From NCBI RefSeq assembly GCF_001677475.2, contig NZ_CP015229.1: DNA of 64,000 nt. The stretch is one strand, 5' to 3'. Below the pieces are notes generated by a model, which saw nothing but the letters and a program-made list of their open reading frames with translations, did not search any database and had not been told where the DNA came from. The translations under genes were made by a program, and so were the position numbers. This document shows positions 19,890 through 60,117 of this stretch, in pieces (the stretch's first letter is position 1; each line of letters starts with the position of its first letter). The stretch comes from Escherichia coli (GTDB lineage: Bacteria; Pseudomonadota; Gammaproteobacteria; Enterobacterales; Enterobacteriaceae).

Positions 19890-20372
19890 ATGGAACTTAA
19901 AAAATTGATGGAACATATTTCTATTATCCCCGATTACAGACAAGCCTGGAAAGTGGAACATAAATTATCGGATATTCTACTGTTGACTATTTGTGCCGTT
20001 ATTTCGGGTGCAGAAGGCTGGGAAGATATAGAGGATTTTGGGGAAACACATCTCGATTTTTTGAAGCAATGTGGTGATTTTGATAATGGTATTCCTGTTC
20101 ACGATACCATTGCCAGAGTTGTATCCTGTATCAGTCCTGAAAAATTTCATGAGTGCTTTATTAACTGGATGCTTGACTGCCATTCTTCAGATGATAAAGA
20201 CGTCATTGCAATTGATGGAAAAACGCTCCGGTACTCTTATGACAAGAGTCGTCGCAAGGGAGCGATTCACGTTATTAGTGTGTTCTCAATAATGCACAGT
20301 CAGATTCCTTGGAAGATCAAGACGAATAAAAAAACAATGAGATTACAGCTGTTTCTGAATTTCTTAACATAA
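19890..20372 (+). pseudogene. Degraded second ISAs1/H-repeat transposase gene (N-terminal 130 aa conserved, then divergent and truncated)
   Basis: 160-aa ORF identical in its first part to the intact copy, then diverging into ...[31 protein letters not shown]; element upstream sequence conserved from about 19745. Confidence 0.7.
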
Positions 20373-20513
20373 TGGGTATTAAAGGAAAAATAATTGCACC
20401 GATCCAATGTGATACCAGAAAGACATCGCTAAGAAGATAGCTATAGACAATTATTACCCTCCGTCAGCCCTTGTTAAGCGAGGAGAGACGTAATCTGTCC
20501 AGTCCCCTAATGC

Positions 20514-21611: not shown

Positions 21612-21657
21612 TTTTTAACCAAAAAAGGGCAGGATACCTGCCCGGTATGCAGTAAAT

Positions 21658-23634: not shown

Positions 23635-23939
23635 CTTAAGCGTCTCCAGAATGGATTTTTATTGGAGGTAATTACGGATGAAAATTTTTAGTGAGGGCAA
23701 GAATAACTATAATGGGCGTTAACAAATTGGCAAGCCGGGAACTTGATGTTTTCTTAATGGCATGTTGGCGAAGAATATATTCTGCAAGTTAACGTTTTCA
23801 TTGGCGCTTTATTTAAAAGTGTGTAGTACAAATATGTACAATTTCAAGTAGGCATTATTGCCGTAAAAACGCATTACCGGACACACGACATTCACAACGT
23901 GTGTTAATTTTACTGACATCTTTCAAAAGGAGCACAATC

Positions 23940-24167
23940 ATGCCGCACATAGACATTAAATGTTTTCCGCGTGAACTGGACGAACAACAAAAAGCAGCAC
24001 TTGCTGCAGATATTACCGACGTTATTATTCGCCATCTGAACAGTAAAGATAGCTCGATAAGCATTTCTCTACAGCAGATTCAACCAGAATCTTGGCAAGC
24101 TATCTGGGATGCCGAAATCGAGCCCCAAATGGAGGCTTTGATAAAGAAACCCGGTTACAGCATGTAA
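23940..24167 (+). CDS. pptA: Tautomerase PptA
   Basis: [33 protein letters not shown]... start at internal Met of track ORF 23901..24167. Confidence 0.8.
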
Positions 24168-39344: not shown

Positions 39345-39363
39345 CCGGGCCGTAGACCCGGCA
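39345..39363. terminator. Hairpin downstream of yddG (possible terminator)
   Basis: GCCGGG-CCGTAGA-CCCGGC stem-loop next to the yddG stop. Confidence 0.35.
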
Positions 39364-39369
39364 ATTATT

Positions 39370-40251
39370 TTAACCACGACGTGTCGCCAGCCAGCAGAGC
39401 AGGGAACCGCCGCAGACCATCAGTGCGCCTTGCCAGAACGAGAACGACAGCGGGGCGCTGAGCAGCACGGCTGCAAGCGCTGAGGAAAGTACGGGCGTAA
39501 AATACGAACCTACCGCCATAATGGTGACGTTGCCATGTAATATACCGACATTCCATGCAGCATAAGCAAATCCTAAGGTAAATGCCGCAGAGATGAGTTT
39601 AATCATGACTGGCGTGCTAAATACCATTTCTGGTTGTGGCGTGAGAAAATAGTAAATCCACAGACTTGCTCCCGTTACCAGGACAAAAACGGTAATTCCG
39701 TTAAATCCGCGTGCGTATTTATTCGTTACTGTGCAATAGGCTGCCCAGATAAAAGCACCAATAAACGCCAGGAAATAACTCAATGGACTGGTGGTAATAT
39801 TATTGATGATTTCATCATATTGTAGCCCGTTGTCGCCGCCTAATACCCAACAGACTCCGACCAGGGCTAATAATAATCCTGGTACAATCAGCCAGTTGGT
39901 TTTCTGACCATTAAACAGAATGGCAAAGAGAATTGTCAGGCTGGGCCACAGATAGTTCACCATACCCACTTCAATCGCCTGATGACGGGTCGCCGCATAC
40001 CCTAAGGAAAGCGCCAGACAGATTTCATAGCTGACGAATAACAGACTCCCAGCGAGCAAATAGCCTTTCGGGATTTGCCGAATACGCGGAAATCCAACCG
40101 TGAAGATTAACAGCAGCCCGCTTAATGAATAGATAGCAGCTGCGCCGCCGACCGGGCCGAGCCCCTCACTGACACCGCGAATCAATCCTACCATCGTGCT
40201 CCACAGGACGATCGCGATTAGCCCTATGAGCGTTGCTTTTTGTCGTGTCAT
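39370..40251 (-). CDS. yddG: Aromatic amino acid exporter YddG (DMT family)
   Basis: 293 aa, 10-TM-like; synteny. Confidence 0.85.
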   Translation of the reverse strand: MTRQKATLIGLIAIVLWSTMVGLIRGVSEGLGPVGGAAAIYSLSGLLLIFTVGFPRIRQIPKGYLLAGSLLFVSYEICLALSLGYAATRHQAIEVGMVNYLWPSLTILFAILFNGQKTNWLIVPGLLLALVGVCWVLGGDNGLQYDEIINNITTSPLSYFLAFIGAFIWAAYCTVTNKYARGFNGITVFVLVTGASLWIYYFLTPQPEMVFSTPVMIKLISAAFTLGFAYAAWNVGILHGNVTIMAVGSYFTPVLSSALAAVLLSAPLSFSFWQGALMVCGGSLLCWLATRRG

Positions 40252-40404
40252 GCTCGCTGTTTTGTCTCTCTTGCCGTTAAAAATTAAGCTGAATTTTATA
40301 GCATTTTTTTAACTGGCCTGTCAGGCAGTGGTGCGTTTTTCTACCGCTATTGAGGTAGGTCAATTTGCGCAGGCGGATTATTTTGTGGCAAACACGTGTT
40401 CTTT

Positions 40405-40418
40405 TTGATTTCGCGCAA
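40405..40418 (+). promoter_or_regulatory. FNR-like half-site in fdnG promoter region
   Basis: TTGAT-N4-CGCAA about 70 bp upstream of fdnG ATG; fdnGHI is anaerobically induced in E. coli. Confidence 0.3.
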
Positions 40419-40482
40419 AAAGATTCAGAATTTTACTGTTAGTTTCCTCGCGCAGTAATACCCCTGAAAAAAGAGGAAAGCA

Positions 40483-43400
40483 ATGGACGTCAGTCGCAGA
40501 CAATTTTTTAAAATCTGCGCGGGCGGTATGGCTGGAACAACGGTAGCGGCATTGGGCTTTGCCCCGAAGCAAGCACTGGCTCAGGCGCGAAACTACAAAT
40601 TATTACGCGCTAAAGAGATCCGTAACACCTGCACATACTGTTCCGTAGGTTGCGGGCTATTGATGTATAGCCTGGGTGATGGCGCGAAAAACGCCAGAGA
40701 AGCGATTTATCACATTGAAGGTGACCCGGATCATCCGGTAAGCCGTGGTGCGCTGTGCCCAAAAGGGGCAGGTTTGCTGGATTACGTCAACAGCGAAAAC
40801 CGTCTGCGCTACCCGGAATATCGTGCGCCAGGTTCTGACAAATGGCAGCGCATTAGCTGGGAAGAAGCATTCTCCCGTATTGCGAAGCTGATGAAAGCTG
40901 ACCGTGACGCTAACTTTATTGAAAAGAACGAGCAGGGCGTAACGGTAAACCGTTGGCTTTCTACCGGTATGCTGTGTGCTTCCGGTGCCAGCAACGAAAC
41001 CGGGATGCTGACCCAGAAATTTGCCCGCTCCCTCGGGATGCTGGCGGTAGACAACCAGGCGCGCGTCTGACACGGACCAACGGTAGCAAGTCTTGCTCCA
41101 ACATTTGGTCGCGGTGCGATGACCAACCACTGGGTGGATATCAAAAACGCTAATGTCGTAATGGTGATGGGCGGTAACGCTGCTGAAGCGCATCCCGTCG
41201 GTTTCCGCTGGGCGATGGAAGCGAAAAACAACAACGATGCAACCTTGATCGTTGTCGATCCCCGTTTTACGCGTACCGCTTCTGTGGCGGATATTTACGC
41301 ACCTATTCGTTCCGGTACGGACATTACGTTCCTGTCTGGCGTTTTGCGCTACCTGATCGAAAACAACAAAATCAACGCCGAATACGTTAAGCATTACACC
41401 AACGCCAGCCTGCTGGTGCGTGATGATTTTACTTTCGAAGACGGCCTGTTCAGCGGTTATGACGCTGAAAAACGCCAGTACGATAAGTCGTCCTGGAACT
41501 ATCAGTTCGATGAAAACGGCTATGCGAAACGCGATGACACGCTGACTCATCCGCGCTGTGTGTGGAACCTGCTGAAAGCGCACGTTTCCCGCTACACGCC
41601 AGACGTCGTTGAAAACATCTGCGGTACGCCAAAAGCCGACTTCCTGAAAGTGTGTGAAGTGCTGGCCTCCACCAGCGCACCGGATCGCACAACCACCTTC
41701 CTGTACGCGCTGGGCTGGACGCAGCACACCGTGGGTGCGCAGAACATCCGTACTATGGCGATGATCCAGTTACTGCTCGGTAACATGGGTATGGCCGGTG
41801 GTGGCGTGAACGCATTGCGTGGTCACTCCAATATTCAGGGCCTGACTGACTTAGGCCTGCTCTCTACCAGCCTGCCAGGTTATCTGACGCTGCCGTCAGA
41901 AAAACAGGTTGATTTGCAGTCGTATCTGGAAGCGAACACGCCGAAAGCGACGTTGGCTGATCAGGTGAACTACTGGAGCAACTATCCGAAGTTTTTCGTT
42001 AGCCTGATGAAATCTTTCTACGGCGATGCCGCGCAGAAAGAGAATAACTGGGGTTACGACTGGCTGCCGAAGTGGGACCAGACCTACGACGTCATCAAGT
42101 ATTTCAACATGATGGACGAAGGCAAAGTCACCGGTTATTTCTGCCAGGGCTTTAACCCGGTTGCGTCCTTCCCGGACAAAAACAAAGTGGTGAGCTGCCT
42201 GAGCAAGCTGAAGTACATGGTGGTTATCGATCCGCTGGTGACTGAAACCTCTACCTTCTGGCAGAACCACGGCGAGTCGAACGATGTCGATCCTGCGTCT
42301 ATTCAGACTGAAGTATTCCGTCTGCCTTCGACCTGCTTTGCTGAAGAAGATGGTTCTATCGCTAACTCCGGTCGCTGGTTGCAGTGGCACTGGAAAGGTC
42401 AGGATGCGCCGGGCGAAGCGCGTAACGACGGCGAAATTCTGGCGGGTATCTACCATCATCTGCGCGAGCTGTACCACGCCGAAGGTGGTAAAGGCGTAGA
42501 ACCGCTGATGAAGATGAGCTGGAACTACAAGCAGCCGCACGAACCGCAGTCTGACGAAGTGGCGAAAGAGAATAACGGCTATGCGCTGGAAGATCTCTAT
42601 GATGCTAATGGCGTGCTGATTGCGAAGAAAGGTCAGTTGCTGAGTAGCTTTGCGCATCTGCGTGATGACGGTACAACCGCATCGTCTTGCTGGATCTACA
42701 CCGGTAGCTGGACAGAGCAGGGCAACCAGATGGCTAACCGCGATAACTCCGACCCATCCGGTCTGGGGAATACGCTGGGATGGGCCTGGGCGTGGCCGCT
42801 CAACCGTCGCGTACTCTATAACCGTGCTTCGGCGGATATCAACGGTAAACCGTGGGATCCGAAACGGATGCTGATCCAGTGGAATGGCAGCAAGTGGACG
42901 GGTAACGATATTCCGGACTTCGGCAATGCCGCACCAGGTACGCTAACCGGGCCGTTTATCATGCAACCGGAAGGGATGGGACGCCTGTTTGCCATCAACA
43001 AAATGGCGGAAGGTCCGTTCCCGGAACACTACGAGCCAATTGAAACGCCGCTGGGCACTAACCCGCTGCATCCGAACGTGGTGTCTAACCCGGTGGTTCG
43101 TCTGTATGAACAAGACGCGCTGCGGATGGGTAAAAAAGAGCAGTTCCCGTATGTGGGTACGACCTATCGTCTGACCGAGCACTTCCACACCTGGACCAAG
43201 CACGCATTGCTCAACGCAATCGCCCAGCCGGAACAGTTTGTGGAGATCAGCGAAACGCTGGCGGCGGCGAAAGGCATTGCCAATGGTGACCGTGTCACTG
43301 TCTCCAGCAAGCGTGGCTTTATCCGCGCGGTGGCTGTGGTAACGCGCCGTCTGAAACCGCTGAATGTAAACGGTCAGCAGGTTGAAACGGTGGGTATTCC

Positions 43401-43530
43401 AATCCACTGGGGCTTTGAGGGTGTCGCGCGTAAAGGTTATATCGCTAACACTCTGACGCCAAATGTCGGTGATGCAAACTCGCAAACGCCGGAATATAAA
43501 GCGTTCTTAGTAAACATCGAGAAGGCGTAA
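40483..43530 (+). CDS. fdnG: Formate dehydrogenase-N alpha subunit with in-frame TGA (selenocysteine) at 41068-41070
   Basis: Track ORFs 40483..41070 and 41119..43530 are in the same frame separated by a single TGA; Tat signal (RRQFFK) and Mo-bisPGD sequence. Confidence 0.9.
41071..41110 (+). promoter_or_regulatory. SECIS element directing selenocysteine insertion at the fdnG UGA
   Basis: Location immediately 3' of the in-frame TGA; exact stem-loop not folded here. Confidence 0.45.
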
Positions 43531-43542
43531 GGGGGCGAACAG

Positions 43543-44427
43543 ATGGCTATGGAAACGCAGGACATTATCAAAAGGTCCGCAACTAACTCCATCACGCCGC
43601 CTTCTCAGGTGCGTGATTACAAAGCAGAAGTCGCGAAACTTATCGACGTTTCCACCTGTATCGGCTGTAAAGCCTGTCAGGTGGCGTGTTCGGAGTGGAA
43701 CGACATCCGTGATGAAGTGGGGCACTGCGTCGGGGTTTATGATAACCCCGCCGATCTGAGCGCCAAGTCCTGGACGGTGATGCGCTTTAGCGAAACCGAA
43801 CAGAACGGCAAACTGGAGTGGCTGATCCGTAAAGATGGCTGTATGCACTGTGAAGATCCGGGCTGCCTGAAGGCGTGCCCGTCTGCTGGTGCAATCATTC
43901 AGTACGCTAACGGGATTGTCGATTTCCAGTCGGAAAACTGCATCGGCTGTGGTTACTGCATTGCCGGGTGTCCGTTTAATATTCCGCGCCTCAACAAAGA
44001 GGATAACCGGGTATATAAATGCACGCTCTGCGTCGATCGCGTCAGCGTCGGCCAGGAACCGGCTTGTGTGAAAACCTGTCCGACCGGGGCTATCCACTTC
44101 GGCACCAAGAAGGAGATGCTGGAGCTGGCGGAACAGCGCGTGGCGAAACTGAAAGCGCGTGGTTACGAACATGCTGGCGTCTACAACCCGGAAGGGGTCG
44201 GTGGTACGCACGTTATGTACGTGCTGCATCACGCCGATCAGCCGGAGCTGTATCATGGTCTGCCGAAAGATCCGAAGATCGATACCTCTGTAAGCCTGTG
44301 GAAAGGCGCGTTGAAACCGCTGGCAGCGGCTGGCTTTATTGCCACTTTTGCCGGGTTGATTTTCCACTACATCGGTATTGGCCCGAATAAGGAAGTGGAC
44401 GATGACGAGGAGGATCATCATGAGTAA
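43543..44427 (+). CDS. fdnH: Formate dehydrogenase-N beta subunit (4Fe-4S)
   Basis: 294 aa with four CxxCxxCxxxCP ferredoxin motifs. Confidence 0.9.
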
Positions 44428-45073
44428 GTCGAAAATGATTGTGCGCACCAAATTTATTGATCGCGCCTGTCACTGGACCGTGGTGATTTGCTTCTTCCTG
44501 GTGGCGCTGTCCGGGATTTCGTTCTTCTTCCCGACGCTGCAATGGCTGACGCAAACCTTCGGTACGCCGCAGATGGGACGCATTTTGCACCCGTTCTTCG
44601 GCATTGCGATTTTCGTCGCGCTGATGTTTATGTTTGTGCGTTTTGTGCATCACAACATCCCGGATAAGAAAGATATTCCGTGGCTGTTGAACATTGTCGA
44701 AGTATTAAAAGGCAATGAGCACAAAGTGGCGGATGTTGGTAAGTACAACGCCGGGCAAAAGATGATGTTCTGGTCGATCATGAGCATGATTTTCGTGCTG
44801 CTGGTGACCGGGGTGATTATCTGGCGTCCGTACTTTGCGCAGTACTTCCCGATGCAGGTTGTTCGCTACAGCCTGCTGATCCACGCGGCTGCCGGTATCA
44901 TCCTGATCCACGCCATCCTGATCCATATGTATATGGCATTTTGGGTGAAAGGATCGATTAAAGGGATGATCGAAGGGAAGGTGAGCCGTCGCTGGGCGAA
45001 GAAACACCATCCGCGCTGGTATCGTGAAATCGAGAAGGCAGAAGCGAAAAAAGAGAGTGAAGAAGGGATATAA
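44420..45073 (+). CDS. fdnI: Formate dehydrogenase-N gamma subunit (cytochrome b556)
   Basis: Start [12 protein letters not shown] overlapping fdnH stop; 217 aa. Confidence 0.9.
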
Positions 45074-45124
45074 TCTCTTTTGAACTTTAAGCTGAAAATG
45101 GCGCTGTAAAAGGCGTCATTTTCA

Positions 45125-45250
45125 TATTGTAGACAACGTAGGCTTTGTTCATGCCGGATGCGGCGTGAACGCCTTATCCGGCCTACAAACCCTTCAAATC
45201 CAATAGATTGCAGTGAACTTGTAGACCTGATAAGCGTAGCGCATCAGGCA
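45125..45250. repeat. REP/BIME palindromic repeat cluster
   Basis: GCCGGATGCGGCGTGAACGCCTTATCCGGCCTACA and TGTAGACCTGATAAGCGTAGCGCATCAGGCA. Confidence 0.65.
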
Positions 45251-45301
45251 ATGTTGCGTTTGTCATCAGTTTCAAATGGCTCTTTATAAGGTGCCATTTT
45301 T

Positions 45302-45586
45302 TTATTGCGTAACCTGACGGCGTAATCGCGACACATCCACCGTTTTTTCAGCCTCTGCCAGACTCCAGGCGTTTTGCAGATTCAGCCACATTTGCGGCGA
45401 ACTGCCGATCACCACGGAAAGTTTAATTGCCATTTCTGGCGTCAAAGCTGCTTTTCCGGTCAGCAATCGGCTTGCCGTTGAGGGAGCAATTTCCATTGCT
45501 CTGGCAAACTCGCGCAGGCTGACATTAAGTTCGTCCAGTGATTCCTGAATAATGCCCCCCGGACGGGGATGATTGGCCATTTTCAT
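45302..45586 (-). CDS. yddM: HigA-like HTH antitoxin-type protein YddM
   Basis: Start [31 protein letters not shown] (internal Met of track ORF). Confidence 0.75.
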
Positions 45587-45730
45587 CAGTGTCTTTACTC
45601 TCAGTAGTGTTCCTTCACTGGGAACACCATCATTGTTGTTCCTTCTTGCGCAACAATAATCCATTTAGCCATTTCATGTTGGAGAGAGTGCGATGCTGCG
45701 ACCCGATCATGGCAGTCGCAGCAAAGCCTC

Positions 45731-46741
45731 TTAGCGGCGGAAATCAATCACCATACGGCCACGGATTTTGCCTTCTTCCATCTCGGTAAAGATGGTGTTG
45801 ATGTCCGCTAACGGACGCAGGGCGACTTTCGGCACCACTTTACCTTCGGCGGCAAACTGGAAGGCTTCAGTTAAATCCTGGCGCGTGCCGACCAGCGAAC
45901 CGACCACTTCAATACCATCCAGCACAAGGCGTGGGATATCCAGGCTCATAGACTCCGGCGGCAGACCGACTGCCACAACACGCCCGCCTGCACGGACAGC
46001 ATCAACTGCCGAGTTAAACGCAGCTTTAGCTACCGCTGTCACCACCGCAGCGTGAGCGCCACCGGTTTTTTCCTGCACAATTTTGGCGGCGTCTTCAGTG
46101 CGTGAGTTAATCGCTAAATCAGCGCCCATTTCGGTTGCCAGTTTTAACTGCTCATCGTTGACATCAATGGCGATCACTTTGGCGTTAAAGACATTCTTCG
46201 CGTATTGCAGGGCGAGGTTACCCAGACCGCCAAGACCGTAGATAGCAATCCACTGCCCTGGACGAATTTTTGACAGCTTAACGGCTTTGTAGGTGGTGAC
46301 CCCCGCACAGGTAATGCTGCTGGCCGCCGCCGAGTCCAGACCATCTGGCACTTTTACCGCGTAATCGGCGACCACGATGCACTCTTCCGCCATCCCGCCA
46401 TCAACGCTGTATCCGGCATTTTTAACTGAACGGCAGAGCGTTTCGTTACCACTGTTACAGTATTCGCAATGACCGCATCCTTCGTAAAACCACGCCACGC
46501 TGGCACGATCGCCTGGTTTTAATGAGGTGACACCTGGGCCAACTTCTGCCACCACACCGATGCCTTCATGGCCCAGAATTACGCCGGTTTTGTCACCAAA
46601 ATCGCCATTCTTAACATGAAGATCGGTATGACATACACCACAACACTCCATTTTCAGCAGGGCTTCGCCATGTTTCAGTGAGCGCAGTGTTTTATCCGTA
46701 ACGTCAACATGATGATCCTTCGTAACAACTGCAGCCTTCAT
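45731..46741 (-). CDS. adhP: Alcohol dehydrogenase, propanol-preferring
   Basis: Start [11 protein letters not shown]; Zn-ADH motifs GHEGIG, GLGGLG. Confidence 0.9.
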
Positions 46742-46874
46742 AGTTCCTCCTTTTCGGATGATGTTCTGCATAGCAGGTGAGGCAAATGAGATTTATTCGC
46801 CACTACCCAGTATGGATGAGATCTGAAAAAGGAAGAGGAAAATTGCCCGGTAGCCTTCACTACCGGGCGCAGGC

Positions 46875-48572
46875 TTAGATGGAGGTACGGCGGTAGTCGC
46901 GGTATTCGGCTTGCCAGAAATTATCGTCAATGGCTTGTTGCAAAGCTTCGGCAGACGTTTTCACCGCCACGCCTTGCTGCTGCGCCATTTTGCCAACCGC
47001 AAACGCAATTGCGCGGGAGACTTTCTGAATATCTTTTAGTTCCGGTAGTACCAGACCTTCGCCGTTCAGGACCAGCGGCGAATACTGGGCAAGCGTTTCA
47101 CTTGCCGACATCAGCATCTCATCGGTGATACGTGACGCGCCGGAAGCAATAACACCCAGCCCAATGCCCGGGAAAATAAAGGCGTTGTTACACTGGGCGA
47201 TAGGGTAGATTTTATCTTTCCATACCACTGGATTAAACGGACTGCCAGTGGCGACCAGCGCGTTACCTTCAGTCCAGGCGATAATGTCCTGAGGTGTGGC
47301 TTCCACGCGTGAAGTCGGGTTAGACAGCGGCATCACGATCGGACGCGGACAGTGTTTGTGCATCTCACGGATGATCTCTTCCGTAAACAGCCCGGTCTGT
47401 CCTGAGACGCCAATCAGAATATCTGGTTTTACATTGCGCACCACGTCCAGCAGTGACAGCACATCGCTGTCGGTATCCCAGTCACTGAGATTTTCGCGTT
47501 TCTGCACCAGTTTGGTCTGGAAAGGCAGCAGGTTCGGCATCTTGTCGGTCAGCAGGCCAAAGCGATCGACCATAAAGACTTTCTGCCGCGCCGTTTCCTC
47601 GCTTAATCCTTCACGCTGAGTCTGGGCAATGATCATTTCGGCAATGCCGCATCCCGCTGAACCTGCGCCAAGGAAGACGATTTTTTTCTCGCTTAACTGA
47701 CCACCTGCCGCGCGGCTGGCTGCGATCAGTGTGCCGACCGTTACCGCCGCGGTGCCCTGAATGTCATCGTTAAAAGAACAAATTTCATTGCGATAGCGGT
47801 TAAGTAACGGCATCGCATTTTTTTGTGCGAAGTCTTCAAACTGCAACAGCACGTCCGGCCAGCGTTGTTTCACAGCCTGGATAAATTCATCAACGAATTC
47901 ATAGTATTCGTCGTCAGTGATACGCGGATTACGCCAGCCCATATACAGCGGATCGTTAAGCAGCTGTTGGTTGTTCGTCCCGACATCCAGCACCACCGGA
48001 AGGGTATACGCCGGGCTGATGCCGCCACAGGCGGTATAGAGTGACAGTTTACCGATCGGAATGCCCATCCCGCCGATGCCCTGGTCACCAAGCCCCAGAA
48101 TACGTTCACCGTCAGTCACCACAATCACTTTAATATTATGGTTCGGCACGTTTTGCAGAATATCGTCCATATTGTGGCGGTTCTGGTAAGAGATAAACAC
48201 GCCGCGTGAACGGCGGTAGATCTCAGAAAAACGCTCACAGGCTGCGCCGACGGTTGGGGTATAAATAACAGGCATCATCTCATCAAGATGATTGTTTACC
48301 AGACGGTAGAAGAGGGTTTCGTTAGTGTCCTGGATGTTACGCAGGTAGATGTGTTTGTCGATTTCGGTTTTGAATCCCTGATACTGGATCCATGCTCGTT
48401 CCGCTTGTTCTTCGATGGTTTCGACCACTTCCGGCAGTAACCCCAGCAGGTTGAAGTTACGGCGTTCTTCCATGCTGAAGGCACTGCCTTTATTCAACAA
48501 CGGAAATTCCAGCAGTACAGGGCCAGCGTAAGGGATATAAAGCGAACGCTGTTTTTTTGTTTTTGGTTCCAT
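46875..48572 (-). CDS. maeA: NAD-dependent malic enzyme
   Basis: Start [18 protein letters not shown] (M13 of track ORF); 565 aa. Confidence 0.9.
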
Positions 48573-49527: not shown

Positions 49528-49956
49528 ATGACAATCCATAAGAAAGGTCAGGCACACTGGGAAGGCGATATCAAACGCGGGAAGGGAACAGTATCCACCG
49601 AGAGCGGCGTGCTGAACCAACAGCCGTATGGATTTAACACGCGTTTTGAAGGCGAAAAAGGAACCAACCCTGAAGAACTGATTGGCGCAGCGCATGCCGC
49701 ATGTTTCTCAATGGCGCTTTCATTAATGCTGGGGGAAGCGGGATTCACGCCAACATCGATTGATACCACCGCCGATGTGTCGCTGGATAAAGTGGATGCC
49801 GGTTTTGCGATTACGAAAATCGCACTGAAGAGTGAAGTTGCGGTGCCGGGTATTGATGCCTCTACCTTTGACGGCATCATCCAGAAAGCAAAAGCAGGAT
49901 GTCCGGTTTCACAGGTACTGAAAGCGGAAATTACGCTGGTATTAGACGTCAACTAG
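49528..49956 (+). CDS. osmC: Osmotically inducible peroxiredoxin OsmC
   Basis: 142 aa; OsmC/Ohr family sequence. Confidence 0.9.
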   Translation: MTIHKKGQAHWEGDIKRGKGTVSTESGVLNQQPYGFNTRFEGEKGTNPEELIGAAHAACFSMALSLMLGEAGFTPTSIDTTADVSLDKVDAGFAITKIALKSEVAVPGIDASTFDGIIQKAKAGCPVSQVLKAEITLVLDVN

Positions 49957-50004
49957 TTTTGCCGACTCGCGCCAACTATACTGGCCGCACCCTTCAGGGC
50001 GACA

Positions 50005-50760
50005 TCAAGTCGCGCTTGTTACTGCCTTCGCTGTCTTTTTCCTGTAGCTTTCCCCTTTCAGTTCGAACATATATCCGTGATGGATCAGCCTGTCTGCCGC
50101 AGCCACCGCCATAGTCTCATCCACGAAGATGCTGCCCCACATGCTGAACGGATGGTTACTGGTTATCACCAGGCTCCCACGTTCATAGCGATGCGCTATT
50201 AACTCGAACAGCACACCCGTTTCGGCACTATCGCGTTTGACATAGCCAAGATCATCCACCACTATCACCCGGTAGCGATCCAGTTTCAGTAGCAGCTCAT
50301 TCAGTTTCAACTGAGCTCTGGCTTTACGTAGTTCCTGCAACAGCTCTCCTGCGCTGTAGAACCGGGCCCGGTAGCCCTGACCTACTACGCCATCCACGAT
50401 CGCTGCCGCCAGATGGCTTTTCCCCAACCCGCTGGCTCCGAACAGCAGAACGTTTTCTCCTGCATCAACCCAGTCTGTCGTTTCACAGAGTTGCCGGAAC
50501 TGAGCTCCATTCAGTTCCGGCACCTGACTGAAGTCGTATTCGCTCAGCGTTTTGGCAACTGGCAACCGGGCCTCCTTTTTATAACGACGCAGTTTTTCAC
50601 TCTCGCGCCACAGGAGTTCTTCATTGCATAGCGTCAGAAGATAGCGCGATGGTGTCCAGCCTTCTGCCAGCGCTCGTTTTTCCAGAGCGTGCCATTCAGC
50701 TCCAACTCGTGTCAGGCGTAGTTTACGCAGGCTATGTTCAAGGTGATGGATATTGCTCAC
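50005..50760 (-). CDS. istB: IS21-family helper ATPase IstB
   Basis: 251 aa; Walker A GASGLGKSHLA and Walker B VIVVDDLGY. Confidence 0.85.
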   Translation of the reverse strand: MSNIHHLEHSLRKLRLTRVGAEWHALEKRALAEGWTPSRYLLTLCNEELLWRESEKLRRYKKEARLPVAKTLSEYDFSQVPELNGAQFRQLCETTDWVDAGENVLLFGASGLGKSHLAAAIVDGVVGQGYRARFYSAGELLQELRKARAQLKLNELLLKLDRYRVIVVDDLGYVKRDSAETGVLFELIAHRYERGSLVITSNHPFSMWGSIFVDETMAVAAADRLIHHGYMFELKGESYRKKTAKAVTSAT

Positions 50761-52256
50761 TGCGAACCTCCCTTGCCACGCAGTAGTTGCTCATAACTGC
50801 TCAGGTTATGCTGTATCACATTGACTACCGGCAACGCCTTTTCTTTTATACCCAGGAAGCGCATCAGCCGGTGCAGATCCACGTTTCCCGGGGTATTCAG
50901 CATCTGCTCCATACCTTTTGCCACGACTGAGATATCGTCGTATCCTGCAGCCAGTTTCAGGGCATGTACCATCAGCCTTCCTGCCATATCGGGCTCCAGA
51001 TGATTACATAAGCGACGCCACAGCCTCCGCCATTCATCGTCCGGCAGGATGTCATTTCTCAGCGTTGCATGGCAGAACGCACCGGGCTTTTTTGCCAGAC
51101 TGTCGATCACATGTCGGAAGTCGATACGACGGGCCCGCGTCTTCCCTTTTTCTGGTCTGACGCGAGGGCAGCTCATGACCTCGCTGCTGCCAACGTAACA
51201 GCTCAGACGATCGTCCCATAACCTGACCCGTAACAGTTGACCTACAAGCCGGGAAGGTACGCTGTAGACGACGTGCTTCACATTGATGGTACTGCTGCGA
51301 CTAACCCTCACAGTCAGCTCATCATAGTCAGCACTGCGACGAAGCGGCAGCGGTTTCAGATGAAGACGTTCTTCCTTGACCAGATCCTGATTGTTACGGT
51401 TGTGCCGCATAACCTGCTGAGTGATGAAGGCCTGATATTCTTCTATGGTGCTGAAGTCGTTACTGCCCCGCAGTATCAGCGCCTGACAGATACGCCTTTT
51501 CAGATGTCCGTGGGCACTTTCAACCGAGCCATTTTCGTGGCCCCGACCGGCATTATTGTGTACGCCCTGCATTCCGTAGTGCTGACAGAGAGTAGCATAA
51601 CGCTCAGTCAGCTCGCGGCGTCCATCTTCGCCCTGTTGTTTCCATGCTGCCCTCAGGCTGTCCGTTTTATGTTCTACCGGCACTCCGCCCAGTTGTCCGA
51701 GGGCTTCCTGCAGGCCTTCAGCCAGAGCAGAGAAGCTCTCACCACCCAGAACAACCCGCATCCAGCTCCAGTGGCTCCATTCCAGACGGAAGTGATACAA
51801 CTTATGCGCCAACAACTTACCGGCGATGGTGACAACTACACCTTTCAGTTCAGTAAAGTCCGACAGGCCTCGCAGGCCGGGCTGATGTTGCTGGCGGAAC
51901 ATGACCTCCTGCTCTGTACCATACTGTAGTTTCCATTCGCGAACCCGCCGTTGCATTGTTCTTCGAAGGCTGTTGGGGTACTGGCCGGGATATTTATCCT
52001 GTAGCATCTCCAGTAGAGTTGTTGGTGTCAGAGCCGGCCTCTCTTTCAACAGAGGAACAAGCATGCTGTCCCACACAGCTTCCAGAGGATCTTTGCGTGT
52101 GCGCCAGTGCCGAACACTGTTTTTTGCCCACTCTCCTTTTTCGATCCGACGACCAGAACGGACTGAGATACCAGCCTTCATGGCCGAGATATGCTGAGTT
52201 ATACCTTTCTTACGCTGAGTCATATAGTAACTGACCTGAGAAGTATTGAGCGTCAC
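50757..52256 (-). CDS. istA: IS21-family transposase IstA
   Basis: 499 aa; N-terminal HTH, DDE-type core; 4-bp overlap with istB. Confidence 0.85.
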   Translation of the reverse strand: MTLNTSQVSYYMTQRKKGITQHISAMKAGISVRSGRRIEKGEWAKNSVRHWRTRKDPLEAVWDSMLVPLLKERPALTPTTLLEMLQDKYPGQYPNSLRRTMQRRVREWKLQYGTEQEVMFRQQHQPGLRGLSDFTELKGVVVTIAGKLLAHKLYHFRLEWSHWSWMRVVLGGESFSALAEGLQEALGQLGGVPVEHKTDSLRAAWKQQGEDGRRELTERYATLCQHYGMQGVHNNAGRGHENGSVESAHGHLKRRICQALILRGSNDFSTIEEYQAFITQQVMRHNRNNQDLVKEERLHLKPLPLRRSADYDELTVRVSRSSTINVKHVVYSVPSRLVGQLLRVRLWDDRLSCYVGSSEVMSCPRVRPEKGKTRARRIDFRHVIDSLAKKPGAFCHATLRNDILPDDEWRRLWRRLCNHLEPDMAGRLMVHALKLAAGYDDISVVAKGMEQMLNTPGNVDLHRLMRFLGIKEKALPVVNVIQHNLSSYEQLLRGKGGSQ

Positions 52257-52380
52257 GCCATTTCCTGTTGGATCATGTAAATGACACTCAGGTTACAAAA
52301 CCGGCCAGAATAATCGGCGCCAGGCGGACTGAGTTATTGTCGTCTCATACGCTGGATTACCAGTTGAAATCGTAAAGCGT

Positions 52381-52404
52381 TGCCGGATGACGCGTCATCC
52401 GGCG
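52381..52404. repeat. Perfect palindrome GCCGGATGACGCGTCATCCGGC (REP-like / terminator hairpin)
   Basis: Read directly; lies just 3' of the dehydrogenase gene on the minus strand. Confidence 0.4.
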
Positions 52405-52409
52405 AACAC

Positions 52410-53180
52410 TTACTGCGCTACCCAACCGCCATCCATATTCCACGCCACCCCACGCACTTGTGCTGCCGCATCCGAACAGAGAAACAGCGCCAGTTCACCC
52501 AGTTGTTGCGGAGTCACAAATTCACGAGAAGGCTGTTTTTCTGCCAGTAAGGCGTCACGCGCGCTTTCCGCATCTTCGCCTTGCGCAATGCGCTTATCAA
52601 TCTGCTGTTGTACCAGCGGCGTCAGCACCCAGCCAGGGCAGAGCGCGTTGCAGGTAATACCCGTCTGCGCAGTTTCCAGAGCAATGGTCTTTGTGAGTCC
52701 CACCACGCCATGTTTTGCCGCAACATAAGCTGATTTGTCTTTCGACGCTACCAGCCCATGCACAGAGGCAATGTTAATGATCCGACCCCAGTTACGAGTG
52801 CGCATTTCTGGCAGTGCCAGACGCGTGGTGTGAAAGACAGAAGAGAGATTGATGGCGATAATGGCGTTCCATTTTTCTACAGGGAAAGATTCAACCGGGG
52901 AGACATACTGGATCCCGGCGTTATTCACCAGAATGTCCACACCGCCAAATTCCCGCCGTGCGTAGGCCATCATGTTGATAATTTGCGATTCATCGCTGAG
53001 GTCTGCCTCATGATAGCCAGGCGTTTTACCCATACGAGAAACCGCATTGATTGCCGCGTCAACATCACCGAAGCCGTTGAGGATCACTTGCGCGCCAGCG
53101 TTTGCCAGTGTCTGAGCAATACCGAGTCCGATACCGCTGGTGGACCCCGTCACCAGCGCAGTTTTACCTTGTAAATTCAT
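52410..53180 (-). CDS. Short-chain dehydrogenase/reductase, 3-hydroxybutyrate dehydrogenase-like
   Basis: 256 aa; TGSTSGIG cofactor motif and YxxxK catalytic motif. Confidence 0.75.
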   Translation of the reverse strand: MNLQGKTALVTGSTSGIGLGIAQTLANAGAQVILNGFGDVDAAINAVSRMGKTPGYHEADLSDESQIINMMAYARREFGGVDILVNNAGIQYVSPVESFPVEKWNAIIAINLSSVFHTTRLALPEMRTRNWGRIINIASVHGLVASKDKSAYVAAKHGVVGLTKTIALETAQTGITCNALCPGWVLTPLVQQQIDKRIAQGEDAESARDALLAEKQPSREFVTPQQLGELALFLCSDAAAQVRGVAWNMDGGWVAQ

Positions 53181-53191
53181 GATGATTTTCC

Positions 53192-54583
53192 TTAGACAAT
53201 GCCGGTGGTGTAGTACACGCCGATGATAAACAGCACGGCCAGACTTTTAATGATCGTAATTGCGAAGATGCCGCCGTAAGCCTGACGGTGACTCAGCCCA
53301 GTAATTGCCAGCAGGGTGATCACAGCGCCGTTATGGGGCAATGTATCCATGCCGCCACTGGCCATAGATGCCACGCGGTGAAAAACTTCCAGTGGAATAT
53401 TGGCAGCGTGCGCAGCGGCAATAAAAGTGTCGGACATAGCCGCAAGAGCAATACTCATCCCGCCGGACGCTGAACCGGTAATTCCGGCAAGTGTGGTGAT
53501 GCTGATGGCTTCGTTGAGTAATGGATCAGGAATGGCGGCCAGCGCCTTTGAGAGCACCAGAAAACCGGGTAGGGCGGCGATAACCGCACCGAAGCCATAT
53601 TCTGAGGCGGTGTTCATCGCAGCCAGAATTGCGCCGCCTACCGCTGTACGGCTTCCTTCTGCCAGTCTTCCATGAATATTGCGATATCCAAAAATCACTA
53701 CCAGCAAAATTCCGGCAATGAGCGCAGCTTCGACGGCCCAGATTGCGGTGATTTTGGCGACATCTGTGGTAATCGGGGCGGTAAGTCCCGGCAACTCCAG
53801 TTGGTGGCTCGCACCGTACCAAACAGGGATCCACCAGGTAAACAACAAGTTCAACAGCCCCACCAGAATCAATGGTGAAATCGCAATGAGTGGGTTCGGT
53901 AAATTGATGTTATCTGGTGTTTCAGGTTCATTAAGTAACTCTGTGCCGTAACCTTCATTTTTTGCCTGCGCTTTACGACGCTGCCGCTCCAGATAGATAA
54001 GCCCGACGGCAATGATAAACAGTGAACCAATAAGCCCCAGCCACGGCGCGGCCCAGGCGTTGGTGCCAAAGAAACTGGTAGGAATAATGTTCTGAATTTG
54101 TGGCGTGCCGGGCAGAGCGTCCATAGTAAAAGAGAATGCTCCCAGGGCCACCGTTGCCGGTATAAGTCGTTTTGGGATGTTACTCTGGCGGAACAGTTCA
54201 GCCGCGAACGGATAAACGGCAAATGCCACCACAAACAGCGACACTCCGCCATAGGTGAGTAATGCACATACCAGCACAATCACCGGAATCGCATGCCGCC
54301 GGCCGAGAATGTTGATTGCAGCAGCGACAATCGAACGAGAAAATCCTGAAAGTTCAATCAGTTTTCCGAACACGGCCCCGAGCAGAAACACCGGGAAGTA
54401 CAATTTCACGAAGCCGACCATTTTTTCCATGAACAGGCCGGTAAATGCTGGGCCAACGGCCCCCGGATCGGTGACAAGAACAGCGCCTAATGCTGCGATG
54501 GGGGCAAAAAGGATAACGCTGTATCCGCGATAGGCTGCCAGCATTAGCAGCCCAAGCGCGGCAAGGGCGATTAATACACTCAT
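53192..54583 (-). CDS. GntP-family permease (hydroxy-acid/H+ symporter type)
   Basis: 463 aa polytopic membrane protein with GntP-like sequence. Confidence 0.75.
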   Translation of the reverse strand: MSVLIALAALGLLMLAAYRGYSVILFAPIAALGAVLVTDPGAVGPAFTGLFMEKMVGFVKLYFPVFLLGAVFGKLIELSGFSRSIVAAAINILGRRHAIPVIVLVCALLTYGGVSLFVVAFAVYPFAAELFRQSNIPKRLIPATVALGAFSFTMDALPGTPQIQNIIPTSFFGTNAWAAPWLGLIGSLFIIAVGLIYLERQRRKAQAKNEGYGTELLNEPETPDNINLPNPLIAISPLILVGLLNLLFTWWIPVWYGASHQLELPGLTAPITTDVAKITAIWAVEAALIAGILLVVIFGYRNIHGRLAEGSRTAVGGAILAAMNTASEYGFGAVIAALPGFLVLSKALAAIPDPLLNEAISITTLAGITGSASGGMSIALAAMSDTFIAAAHAANIPLEVFHRVASMASGGMDTLPHNGAVITLLAITGLSHRQAYGGIFAITIIKSLAVLFIIGVYYTTGIV

Positions 54584-54628
54584 CGGGACTCCTCAATATC
54601 GTTGTTATAGTGGGTACAGCGAGAGAAG

Positions 54629-55552
54629 TTATGGTTTAAGGGCGAAGCGAAGTTGATGTTCCCGACGCTGCTGGATGTACTGCTTCCGCGATTCATCCCA
54701 GCAGTAAAATCCCTGACCGCTACGTACGCCGATGTCTCCACGTTCCACTTTTTCGGCAACTAATGACATCATGTCGCTGCCAGTCGCTAGTTCAGGGAGC
54801 AGATGGCGACAAATATCCTGCACCGTCGAAAGTCCGGTCATGTCGGCGGCCTCCAGCGGGCCGACCATGGCATAACGTCGCCCAAGCGAGGCGCGCATCA
54901 CCTGATCCACCACTTCTGCACTGGCGATGCCGCTTTTTACGATATGCAGGGCTTCACGCAACAGTGCAAATTGCAGACGGTTGCCGACAAATCCTGGCGC
55001 AGCGCGATCCAGCAACACTGCTTCCAGTTGCAGTGACACAAGCAAGTGTTGCAGCCAGTGCAAATGCTTTGGCTCGGTAACGCTGCCGGGGATAATCTCC
55101 ACAAGTGGAATGAAGTGCGGCGGATGCCAGAAATGGGCGATCAGCAGTCGTTGCGGGTAGCGCATCTTCGCGGCCAGATCATCGGGCGGCAGACCGCTGG
55201 TATTGCTGGCGACAATGGCCTCAGGAGAAATAAGCGTTTCAAGCTCGGTATATAATGCGTGTTTTAGTTCAAGTCGCTCCGGGATCGCCTCAATCAGTAG
55301 TTGCGAGTCGGCGATGTCTGCAAGAGAAGTCGTGCCGTGCAGACGTTTAAGCACATTCTCTTTTTCCGGGGCAGTAAACTGTTCGCAGCTAATCAGCTCA
55401 TCAAGAATTCCGCCTGCAACTACGTGGATTTCTGCAATCCGGCTCTGCTCGGTATCGTACAGCCAGATATCATGACCAAAGCGGGCGAAATGAGTGGCAA
55501 TCCCCACGCCCATCAATCCGGCGCCCAGTACCGCAAATTGTTCAGTTTGCAT
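54629..55552 (-). CDS. 3-hydroxyacyl-CoA dehydrogenase family protein
   Basis: 307 aa; N-terminal Rossmann motif [13 protein letters not shown]. Confidence 0.7.
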
Positions 55553-56746
55553 GGTGTTCTCCTGTGGTTCTTTCCAGTGTCAGCGCCACGCCCTGACCGC
55601 CACCGACGCACAGCGTCGCCAGCCCTTTTTGCGCATTACGTCGCGCCATTTCATAAATGAGAGTGACCAGAATGCGGCAACCGGAAGCGCCAATAGGATG
55701 CCCAAGTGCGATTGCGCCGCCGTTAACATTCACTTTGTCGCAATCCCAGTTCAGTTCGTCGCCAACGGCCAGCGCCTGCGCTGCGAAAGCCTCGTTGGCT
55801 TCAATAAGATCAATATCTTCCAGCGTCCATCCGCAACGCTTAAGACATTCGCGGGAGCGGCGACCGGACCAATGCCCATAAAGGCAGGATCGACGCCAGA
55901 AACGGCATAACCAGCCACCCGAGCCAGCACAGGGAGACCAAGTTCGGCAGCTTTGCTGGCGCGCATTAACATGACTGCGGCGGCACCATCATTGATGGAA
56001 GAAGCATTTCCTGCGGTGACGCTTCCCGCCCCCGGAAGAAAGGCCGGTTTCAGTTGTGCTAGTTTTTCCAGTTGCGTCCCGGAACGTGGTTGTTCGTCGG
56101 TATTTACCCTGCGTGGTGGTTTTTTACCTTGTGGTACGCTGACCGGAGTAATTTCGTCTGCAAAGCGCCCGGCTTCCATTGCGGCAGCGGCTTTTTGCTG
56201 AGAACGTAGCGCGAATGTGTCCTGTCGCTCGCGACTGATGGCATATTTTTGCGCCAGGTTTTCTGCAGTAATGCCCATGTGGTAATCATTGAAAGCGTCC
56301 CATAGTCCGTCATGCACCACGCTGTCTTTCATGCTGGTATGCCCGAGGCGTAAACCTGCCCGTGCGCCATCAATAAAATAGGGCGCGTTACTCATGCTTT
56401 CCTGGCCACCTGCGATAATTATCTGTGCATCACCGCAACGGATCGCCTGTACGGCCTGGTGTACTGCTTTCAGACCGGAACCACATACCAGGTTGATGGT
56501 AACGGCGGGTGTATCGTGGCTTAACCCGGCTTTGAGCGCCGATTGCCGTGCCGGATTTTGTCCGCTTCCGGCAGTCAGGACCTGACCAAAAATCACTTCG
56601 TCGATCTGTTCTGCTGCAAGTGCTGTTTTCTCCAGCAATGAACGGATGGTGGCAGCGCCGAGATCAACCGCAGAAAGTGGGGCGAGAGCGCCATGAAAAC
56701 AGCCAATCGGTGTGCGCGTAGCGGCAACAATAACAACGTCCTGCAT
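55542..56746 (-). pseudogene. Acetyl-CoA acetyltransferase (thiolase) with apparent 1-nt frameshift near 55850
   Basis: Track shows N-terminal 331-codon ORF (55751..56746) and the conserved C-terminal thiolase segment [24 protein letters not shown] in a different frame (55542..55733). Confidence 0.65.
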
Positions 56747-56755
56747 GGTGATTCC

Positions 56756-57412
56756 TCAGTTGAATTGCATTTCCGGGACATGTTCCGGCACAAACAACTT
56801 ACCGGCGGTTTTGGCGATGATTTCCGCAACGCTGATTCCCGGCGCGCGCTCGCGCAGAATGAAAGCTCCGTCAGCAATTTCCAGCAGAGCAAGGTCGGTT
56901 AAGACGCGTTTGATGCATCCGGCGCCGGTCAACGGAAGGGTACAGTCAGGAAGCAGTTTGGATTCGCCGGATTTGGAGGCGTGGGTCATTACCACAATAA
57001 TATTCTCGGCACCGGCAACCAGATCCATGGCACCGCCCATGCCTTTAACCATCTTGCCGGGGATCATCCATGAGGCAATGTTGCCATTCACATCCACTTC
57101 AAATACGCCAAGTACAGTCAGATCCACATGACCGCCACGGATCATGGCGAATGATTGCGCCGAATCGAAAATTGCCGCGCCTTTCCGCGCGGTAACGGTT
57201 TGTTTACCGGCATTAATCATGTCGGCGTCCAGTTCGTCTTCCGTAGGAAATGCGCCCATTCCCAGCAAACCGTTTTCTGACTGCAACATCACATCCATCC
57301 CGTCAGGAATGTAGTTTGCCACCAGGGTCGGGATACCAATGCCGAGATTGACGTAATAGCCATCGCGCAATTCGCGGGCGACTCGCATCGCCATTTGTTC
57401 ACGGGTTAACAT
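56756..57412 (-). CDS. 3-oxoacid CoA-transferase subunit B (AtoA-like)
   Basis: 218 aa; AtoA/ScoB-like sequence. Confidence 0.8.
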   Translation of the reverse strand: MLTREQMAMRVARELRDGYYVNLGIGIPTLVANYIPDGMDVMLQSENGLLGMGAFPTEDELDADMINAGKQTVTARKGAAIFDSAQSFAMIRGGHVDLTVLGVFEVDVNGNIASWMIPGKMVKGMGGAMDLVAGAENIIVVMTHASKSGESKLLPDCTLPLTGAGCIKRVLTDLALLEIADGAFILRERAPGISVAEIIAKTAGKLFVPEHVPEMQFN

Positions 57413-57414
57413 GG

Positions 57415-58122
57415 TCAGGCTCCTTTGCGGCTAAGGGTGCGTTGTTCAATGCGTTTTTCAAATTGCCCCTGAATGACGCGATTAACAAAAATCCCCGGGG
57501 TATGGATAGCGGCAGGATCAAGTTCACCAGGTGGCACTATTTCTTCCACTTCCACCACGGTGATTTTTCCGGCAGCCGCCATCAGTGGGTTGAAGTTTTG
57601 CGCGGTATGACGATAAATCACGTTGCCGTACCAGTCGGCTTTCCAGCCTTTGACCAGGGCAAAATCACCGGTGATAGCCTGTTCCATGATGTACGGGCGA
57701 CCGTTGAATTCGCGGACTTCTTTCCCTTCGGCAACGGGAGTACCGTAACCGGTGGCAGTAAAGAACGCCGGGATACCCGCGCCGCCTGCGCGCAGTTGTT
57801 CTGCCAGGGTTCCTTGTGGTGTGAGAATCGCCTCCAGTTCGCCGTTAAGCACCTGTTTTTCAAACAAAGCATTCTCGCCAACATAAGAAGCGACGACTTT
57901 ACGGATCTGTCGGCTTTCCAGTAGTACATCCAGTCCAAAACCATCTACGCCACAGTTATTGGAAACCACCGTTAATCCGGTTACTCCACGGTGGCGAACT
58001 TCAGCAATCAGATTCTCCGGGATGCCGCACAGGCCAAAACCTCCTGCCAGAATCGTCATCTCATTGGTAAGTCCTTCAAGCGCCTCGTGATACGTAGCGA
58101 CCCGTTTATCCAACCCAGCCAT
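57415..58122 (-). CDS. 3-oxoacid CoA-transferase subunit A (AtoD-like)
   Basis: 235 aa; AtoD/ScoA-like sequence. Confidence 0.8.
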
Positions 58123-58263
58123 ACAGTTGCCCTCCAGTTGTCCTTTTCAACATCATTAAGGGCAAAAAATGATTTGTTAATTTTAAATTTGTGACTCATT
58201 CATTTGTATTATTTATCAATACAATGTTAATTAAATGTATTCAGTAGGTTAACGGGGTGCCAG

Positions 58264-59154
58264 ATGAAAATGAGCATCAAACAGTTACGCGCGTTTTTAG
58301 CGGTAGCTCACACTCTGAACTTTGCCCATGCCAGTGAACGGCTGAATATGTCGCAGCCTGCGCTAAGTCTTGCCATTAAAGGACTGGAAGATGCCTTAGG
58401 GGGCGCTTTACTGCTGCGTACTACGCGAAAAGTGACATTAACCCAGGAGGGGGAAACGCTATTGTCGATGGCACGGCCTTTGCTGGCTGACTGGGATAAC
58501 ACTGAGGAGGCCATGCGTCAGCGATTCACGCTCAGGCGGGGCAAAGTCTCGGTGGCAGCGATGCCGTCATTTGCAGCCAACGTTCTGCCTCCGGTGCTGA
58601 AAACCTTCCGCGATTGTTATTCAGGGATTAATGTCACCGTGCACGATGTGGTGAATGAGCAGGTGATCGAAATGGTGAGCGAAGGGCGTGTGGAGATGGG
58701 TATTGCCTTTGAACCTGACTATTGCGGCCATGTGCATTTTACCCCACTGGGCGTGGATCGGTTTGTCGCTATTGTTCCAGCCGATTCACGACTGGCAAAT
58801 CGGCAACGCGTGAGTTGGCGGGATTTGCTGACGCTCGATTTTATCACCCTCCAGCGACCGTCAGCCGTCAGGTTGATGCTGGAGGAGCAGTTGGCACAAA
58901 GTGGAACGCAACTGGAAGTGTCGCTGGAAAGCCATCAACTGGTTACGGTTGGGCGGCTGGTGGCAAACGGTTTGGGAGGAAGCGCTGTGCCTGCGCTGTG
59001 CCGCAGGCAGATGAGCGAACTGGGCGCAGTGTGTCTGGAACTGGATAATCCAGTGATTGAGCGACGAGTAGGCGTACTGCGTTCGTCACACCATAAGCTT
59101 TCTACTGCGGCGCAGGCGTTGATGGAAACGTTAAAAAAAACCTATGACGCATAA
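58264..59154 (+). CDS. LysR-family transcriptional regulator, divergent from the catabolic operon
   Basis: 296 aa; N-terminal HTH LRAFLAVAHTLNFAHASERLNMSQPALSLAIKGLE. Confidence 0.8.
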   Translation: MKMSIKQLRAFLAVAHTLNFAHASERLNMSQPALSLAIKGLEDALGGALLLRTTRKVTLTQEGETLLSMARPLLADWDNTEEAMRQRFTLRRGKVSVAAMPSFAANVLPPVLKTFRDCYSGINVTVHDVVNEQVIEMVSEGRVEMGIAFEPDYCGHVHFTPLGVDRFVAIVPADSRLANRQRVSWRDLLTLDFITLQRPSAVRLMLEEQLAQSGTQLEVSLESHQLVTVGRLVANGLGGSAVPALCRRQMSELGAVCLELDNPVIERRVGVLRSSHHKLSTAAQALMETLKKTYDA

Positions 59155-59190
59155 CGTTTCCGCAGACATGCAATAGCCGGATGCCGCGTC

Positions 59191-60117
59191 CTACAGCGCC
59201 CGCCAGCAACGGATCTCACGTCCGTCAGCCCGCGTCGTTAATGATTGCCGGACTTCGCATCCGCTGGTTGCAAGGGGGCAACGTTCGCGGAAAAAACAGC
59301 CTTGTGGCAACGTGCGGTTTCCTGGTAGATCCGTTTTACGTAATGCCCATTCTTCCTCCAGCGGTTTATCAATGGCGGGGAGGGAATCCAGCAATAATCG
59401 GGTGTAGGGATGTGCCGGAGCTGTCAGCACCTGTTGCGCGTCTCCTAGTTCCACAATCTGTCCGAGATACATCACCGCCACCCGATCGCTCATATGACGT
59501 ATCACCGAGACATTGTGTGAAATCAGCACATAAGTCAGCTCGCGATTTTCCTGTAGCGTTACCAGTAAATTGAGGATCTGCGCCTGCACGGAGATATCCA
59601 GCGCCGAGGTTGGTTCATCAAGCACAATCACGTCAGGCTGCGAAGAGAGTGCTCTGGCAATGGCGATACGTTGCCGCTGCCCGCCTGAGAACGCATGAGG
59701 CAAGCGGTCGAGATACTCCGGACGAATACCCACCTGCACAGCCAGCTCCTCTGCCAACGCTCGCCGCTGTTGTTCACTACTACGCTTAGCAATCCAGAGC
59801 GGTTCCGTGATGATGCGCCACACCGGTAAGCGCGGATTAAGCGAAGAGAGCGGGTCCTGAAACACCATCTGCATAATGCGTTGTGATCCTGAACGGATGT
59901 ACTGCCCGTGGCTTGGTTGCAGCATACCCATTAAAAGCTGTGCGAGGGTGCTTTTGCCGCAGCCTGACTCACCTACGATCCCTAAGGTTTCACCACGACG
60001 GATCTGTAAATCAATACCATTGATGGCATGAACATGTTCCGTAGTTTTACCAAGCCAGTTTTTTCGGGCCGGGAAATTGATATGGACGTCGCGTAACGTT
60101 AATAACGTGTCAGACAC
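59191..60117 (-). CDS. ddpF: Dipeptide ABC transporter ATP-binding protein DdpF
   Basis: GTG start after AGGAGG RBS (track ORF extends to 60171); Walker motifs. Confidence 0.85.
   Translation of the reverse strand: MSDTLLTLRDVHINFPARKNWLGKTTEHVHAINGIDLQIRRGETLGIVGESGCGKSTLAQLLMGMLQPSHGQYIRSGSQRIMQMVFQDPLSSLNPRLPVWRIITEPLWIAKRSSEQQRRALAEELAVQVGIRPEYLDRLPHAFSGGQRQRIAIARALSSQPDVIVLDEPTSALDISVQAQILNLLVTLQENRELTYVLISHNVSVIRHMSDRVAVMYLGQIVELGDAQQVLTAPAHPYTRLLLDSLPAIDKPLEEEWALRKTDLPGNRTLPQGCFFRERCPLATSGCEVRQSLTTRADGREIRCWRAL

Follow-up and report, generated by a model that had tools for sequence, protein, structure and literature searches.

The window analysed here, a 64,000-nucleotide stretch of Escherichia coli DNA, carries on its plus strand fdnGHI, the operon for the nitrate-inducible, membrane-bound formate dehydrogenase-N. 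The first gene of the operon, fdnG, begins in the window sequence with an ATG at 40483 and contains a TGA at 41068-41070. The features of the operon, together with two ORFs of an insertion farther downstream, are as follows.

40405..40418, plus strand: FNR-like half-site pair TTGATttcgCGCAA, with 2 mismatches to TTGAT-N4-ATCAA and identical to K-12
40483..43530, plus strand: fdnG coding sequence, formate dehydrogenase-N alpha subunit, 1015 residues and a stop when read through the TGA at codon 196
40483..40581, plus strand: predicted twin-arginine (Tat) signal peptide MDVSRRQFFKICAGG...ALA, with SRRQFFK visible in the translation
41065..41123, plus strand: bacterial SECIS element by Rfam match (RF01989), with a predicted hairpin at 41073-41113
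41068..41070, plus strand: UGA codon 196, almost certainly a selenocysteine codon (TGA in K-12 and 536, X196 of 1KQF, His197 next)
41082..41099, plus strand: upper SECIS minihelix GGUAGCAAGUCUUGCUCC, the putative SelB-binding part, with bulged U17 (41084) and loop G23-U24 (41090-41091)
43543..44427, plus strand: fdnH, iron-sulfur beta subunit (TIGR01582, 482 bits against a cutoff of 334.7)
44420..45073, plus strand: fdnI, cytochrome b556 gamma subunit (NF007558, 486.5 bits against a cutoff of 339)
50757-52256 and 50005-50760, minus strand: ISEc10 ORFs within the insertion at 49945-52347

The list of open reading frames presents fdnG as two plus-strand entries, 40483..41070 (195 aa) and 41119..43530 (803 aa), which share one frame because 40483 and 41119 are both 1 mod 3. 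Translated in that single frame, 40483-43530 comprises 1016 codons; the terminal stop lies at 43528-43530, and the sole internal stop is codon 196, found in the peptide context DNQARV*HGPTVASLAPTFGRG (DNQARV*HGPTVAS...). The frame is open directly past the TGA, and the second listed ORF begins at 41119 solely because the next ATG is located there. The ORF list and the translation thus confirm the description given in the initial annotation, namely that a single TGA splits fdnG into two parts of the same frame. An additional ORF of 356 aa on the minus strand (40657-41727), antisense to fdnG, was considered a mechanical consequence of the coding strand.

The two smaller subunits, FdnH and FdnI, each show 0 amino-acid differences from K-12. 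For fdnI, the NF007558 match covers residues 15-231 of the TTG-started ORF and therefore corresponds to the ATG-started protein of 217 aa. Upstream of fdnG lies the divergent gene yddG, and the intergenic region of 231 bp between the two is identical to K-12 at 228/231 positions. Within it, the half-site pair at 40405-40418 is taken, from established knowledge, to function as an FNR site. A pair of inverted heptamers, TACCGCT-at-TGAGGTA, is found upstream of this pair at 40342-40357 and is identical to K-12; it resembles the '7-2-7' site for NarL in the fdnG promoter and is a candidate for that site. Just downstream of fdnI, REP-like palindromic units occupy 45147-45228, where Rfam matches stay below threshold (naRNA4, 38.2 bits against 59.5; ES036, 25.4 against 37.6), as is typical of intergenic REP sequences.

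On a larger scale, the window is collinear with E. coli TB06051 from pptA to osmC. Relative to that strain, a 2.4-kb insertion (49945-52347) separates osmC from the 3-hydroxybutyrate dehydrogenase gene; ISEc10 (istA/istB), an element of the IS21 family, matches this insertion at 99.9% identity. None of 5426 complete E. coli genomes is a close match to the window; the highest identity over collinear parts is 97.1% for 23857-49944 and 98.5% for 52348-64000, and the window may therefore derive from an Escherichia or Shigella lineage outside that set. The first part of the window, 1-23856, is an RHS, type VI secretion Vgr, ISAs1 and IS1 region only partly common to other strains; the best E. coli genome covers just 57% of it (8203-24000), and no long match to 1-8202 was found among the top E. 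coli genome hits.

Conservation of the fdnG reading frame and protein

An alignment to E. coli fdnG, which had been proposed as a check, was carried out with the genes of K-12 MG1655 and strain 536. The alignment with K-12 is gapless over 3048 nt with 97.7% nucleotide identity; TGA stands at codon 196 in both reference genes, and neither comparison revealed another stop or a frameshift. Third codon positions hold 61 of the 70 nucleotide differences from K-12 (87%), leaving 8 amino-acid changes in the protein. Every window-specific FdnG substitution affects a residue that is variable in a set of 68 full-length homologues, and in the same set His197 and Arg446 are invariant. At the population level, a Megablast search of 5426 complete E. 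coli genomes detected the 3.3-kb fdnG/fdnH region in 5425 of them (best identity 98.3%), and 5406 E. coli records with an fdnG annotation match the 111 nt surrounding the TGA at 99% identity or better. To judge by its sequence, the gene is under purifying selection, with no sign of decay. On account of synteny and identity, it was assigned as the orthologue of fdnG and not of fdoG.

Continuity across codon 196 is apparent at the protein level. The two halves match adjoining positions, 1-194 and 196-1009, of the NCBIfam equivalog profile for formate dehydrogenase-N alpha (TIGR01553), with only the selenocysteine column skipped between them; by itself, the C-terminal part reaches 1313.8 bits (cutoff 814.2), and the N-terminal part contributes 279.5 bits. 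Structure searches were conducted with the C-terminal part of FdnG and with a codon-spanning segment carrying a Cys placeholder at codon 196. The first matched chain A of PDB entries 1KQF and 1KQG (formate dehydrogenase, nitrate-inducible, major subunit) over FdnG residues 197-1015 with E = 0, and the second aligned residue for residue to 1KQF 129-280. Opposite the TGA, 1KQF chain A has a non-standard residue, X, at position 196.

The translation further contains the hallmarks expected of FdnG. It holds U/H at positions 196-197, R446, SRRQFFK, CTYCSVGC and ALCPKG, so that the Sec196-His197 pair, Arg446, the twin-arginine signal and a Cys-x2-Cys-x3-Cys...Cys 4Fe-4S motif are all present. Based on established knowledge of FdnG, SRRQFFK is taken to be the Tat signal, and the cleavage position is assumed in the same way. 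In formate dehydrogenase-N, Sec196 is the active-site ligand of molybdenum in the bis-MGD cofactor. For K-12, a full-length selenium-containing protein of ~110 kDa has already been published, and the selenocysteine of fdnG is visible in a crystal structure from 2002. By its title, the study of Berg et al. from 1991 (J Biol Chem 266:22380), cited as ref. 73 in PMC13188914, reportedly provided evidence for selenocysteine as the residue encoded by the opal UGA of fdnG.

The SECIS element and its covariation

The initial annotation had expected a SECIS hairpin directly downstream of the UGA, and both folding and family searches located one. Folding of a 48-nt stretch at the UGA gave a hairpin at 41073-41113 with a minimum free energy (MFE) of -13.8 kcal/mol. 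When 39000-47000 was scanned against all Rfam families, SECIS_3 (RF01989) matched the plus strand at 41065-41123 over its full model, 1-59, with 84.3 bits and E = 1.8e-19 (gathering score 63). The feature had earlier been closed at 41110, which approximates the 3' end of the hairpin; the predicted stem extends to 41113 and the Rfam match to 41123. The element sits inside the coding region, immediately 3' of the in-frame UGA, with the hairpin beginning 5 nt into the sequence that follows. The fdhF-type class SECIS_2 reached only 28.8 bits against a gathering score of 70, and the element was accordingly placed in SECIS_3, the fdnG/fdoG type. Taken by itself, the energy with which the 48-nt stretch folds does not stand out statistically (z = -1.44; 21/200 shuffles fold as well); therefore, thermodynamics alone is no proof, and the argument was based instead on the covariance model and on covariation.

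Numbered from the U of the UGA, the element comprises G15-G16, a bulged U17 (41084) and a helix in which A18-A22 pairs with U26-U30, capped by the apical loop G23-U24-C25 (41090-41092). The loop reads A-GUC-U and can be drawn either as a 3-nt GUC closed by an A-U pair or as a 5-nt loop, AGUCU. The upper stem consists of 7 bp with one bulged U, and the spacing between the UGA and the loop is 19 nt (41071-41089). A published bSECIS model specifies a loop of 3-9 nt, an upper stem of 4-16 bp, a UGA-loop distance of 16-37 nt, a G at loop position 1 or 2 with G or U as the next base, and an MFE of at most -7.5 kcal/mol (PMC13188914); the fdnG element agrees with it on every count. In other work, the 17-nt upper stem-loop was described as starting 11 nt after the UGA; SelB is reported there to bind the nucleotides U17 and G23, and U24 is named as the other position conserved in the loop (PMC8659212). 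U17, G23 and U24 of the fdnG element are located at the positions of these determinants.

A search pattern with 27 specified bases matched once in the window and in 0 of 100 shuffles. The same pattern, with stem positions left free, was applied to genome contigs at one genome per species and retrieved at least 120 loci. Among the matches listed are loci from Enterobacterales, Pseudomonas, Mesorhizobium, Thiobacillus, a Desulfobulbaceae MAG and others. In 120/120 of the listed matches, the TGA lies in frame within DNQARV*H[GA]PTVASLAP[TS][FY]GRG. The 59-nt SECIS of the window is identical in the fdnG genes of K-12 and strain 536; moreover, 49 of the 120 listed matches, from many enterobacterial genera, contain the identical 59-mer, and synonymous sites in the SECIS therefore appear effectively frozen there. 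Altogether, the 120 listed matches, which derive from Proteobacteria, comprise 48 distinct 59-mers.

These 48 sequences were aligned without gaps and examined for compensatory change. The upper helix, columns 18-25 with 29-35, is paired in 100% of the distinct listed sequences, a figure to be read with the fact that the search pattern fixed most upper-helix columns and that the test is unbiased only at columns 21, 24, 30 and 33. At these columns the pairs do vary: among the 48 distinct listed sequences, pair 21-33 occurs as GC in 30, AU in 14 and GU in 4, and pair 24-30 as AU in 28, CG in 10 and GC in 10. The covariation score was reached by 0/500 shuffles, and when the registers are slid, no more than 26-47% of cells pair. 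Since the four columns are third positions of Val, Ala, Leu and Ala codons, at which the changes are synonymous, covariation between them suggests that the structure of the RNA is under selection within the coding sequence. The lower stem is about 85% paired, with some unpaired cells across species and two plausible registers, namely that of Rfam (84.7% paired) and that of the E. coli MFE structure (86.7%). Neither is clearly better, and thus no exact lower-stem pairing is claimed. Weaker pairing in this part agrees with the report that the lower stem contributes less to read-through (PMC8659212).

Selenocysteine recoding and its alternatives

Taken together, these observations make it nearly certain that the TGA at 41068-41070 is the programmed Sec196 codon of an intact fdnG, the first gene of fdnGHI, and the analysis brought up no substantive counter-evidence. 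The recoding that the initial annotation had asserted in place of a pseudogene is backed by the gapless K-12 alignment and by the SECIS_3 match. A pseudogene, in which a nonsense mutation at codon 196 would have left the downstream part to decay, is very improbable. Such a reading would draw on the behavior of a mechanical ORF caller, which splits the gene at the TGA, and on the IS elements nearby in the window's lineage, but K-12, strain 536 and practically all of the 5425 E. coli genomes with the gene have the same TGA. Additionally, 87% of the differences from K-12 occupy third codon positions, and His197 and Arg446 are retained. A missing SECIS combined with further disabling mutations had been named earlier as the outcome that would speak against recoding; instead, a full-score SECIS follows the codon, and the gene has no other stop and no frameshift.

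Very little probability likewise attaches to the TGA as a true terminator that yields two polypeptides, one of 195 aa and one of 803 aa initiated at ATG 41119. The ATG at 41119 is indeed in frame, and established knowledge leads one to expect termination at the UGA as a side product when selenium is limiting. Against separate products, the TIGR01553 profile and the 1KQF chain are continuous across the codon, and the active-site residue would be missing. A restart at 41119 would also forfeit the 16 codons between the TGA and that ATG (HGPTVASLAPTFGRGA), which are invariant or nearly so in the 120 matches listed. A sequencing or assembly error for TGC or TGT, as would suit a cysteine-type formate dehydrogenase, has a negligible chance of being correct. 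Cysteine homologues of selenoprotein formate dehydrogenases are established in other bacteria, yet the 59-nt element, TGA included, is the same in K-12 and in 49 of the 120 listed loci, which are independent and come from other genera, and an error that recreates the canonical codon is not credible.

Under the preferred reading of programmed selenocysteine insertion, the hairpin at 41073-41113 would form in the mRNA directly 3' of the UGA during translation. Its upper minihelix (41082-41099) would be bound by the elongation factor SelB carrying GTP and Sec-tRNA(Sec). Once the UGA occupies the ribosomal A site, SelB would compete with release factor 2 and deliver Sec-tRNA(Sec). Selenocysteine would be inserted, and translation would run on to the stop at 43528-43530, giving a precursor of 1015 residues that the Tat system would presumably export via the SRRQFFK signal. 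For the fdnG element itself, we infer SelB binding and selenium incorporation from established knowledge and from its identity to the K-12 element. None of selA, selB, selC and selD lies within the 64-kb window, in which a tRNA scan detected no tRNA gene; as the locus is Escherichia-like, these genes are assumed to be located elsewhere in the genome.

For annotation, the consequence is that a naive ORF caller breaks fdnG in two at the UGA, so that the intact gene of a respiratory enzyme may be labelled a pseudogene or two fragments. Recognition of the selenocysteine codon and the SECIS restores a single selenoprotein of 1015 residues. The value of the result is limited to this point, as selenocysteine recoding in fdnG is a textbook case, already known since 1991, and involves no new biology.

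Relationship to known formate dehydrogenase genes

The closest known counterpart is fdnG of K-12 (b1474), which shares with the window gene its length of 3048 nt, its selenocysteine codon 196 and the 59-nt SECIS. The loci are likewise alike, each with an fdnGHI operon, yddG upstream and yddM/adhP downstream. The differences from K-12 amount to 70 synonymous-biased nucleotides and 8 amino acids in the gene and to 3 bases in the promoter region.

The SECIS of fdhF (formate dehydrogenase-H), which is SECIS_2-like, is the experimentally best-studied bacterial SECIS. The fdnG element has the same layout, consisting of the UGA, 11 nt, and a minihelix with a bulged U17 and loop G23-U24. The two differ at position 22: the fdhF loop is GGUC with G22, whereas fdnG has A22, which gives A-GUC-U and possibly an extra A-U closing pair. 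The earlier expectation of a GGUC-type loop thus holds for the placement of G23, U24 and the bulged U17, which follows fdhF, but not for a literal GGUC, which A22 replaces with A-GUC-U.

K-12 fdoG, encoding the alpha subunit of formate dehydrogenase-O, also has its selenocysteine at codon 196 in the same peptide context, and its UGA and next 45 nt are identical to those of the window gene. Its locus differs in that it adjoins fdhD/fdhE, and overall fdoG is 74.6% identical to the window fdnG. The longest identical run between the two genes, 71 nt (41065-41135), lies exactly over the UGA and the SECIS. With low probability, and with no bearing on how the TGA is read, this identity may be due in part to repeated gene conversion between the two loci in addition to joint selection on protein and RNA.
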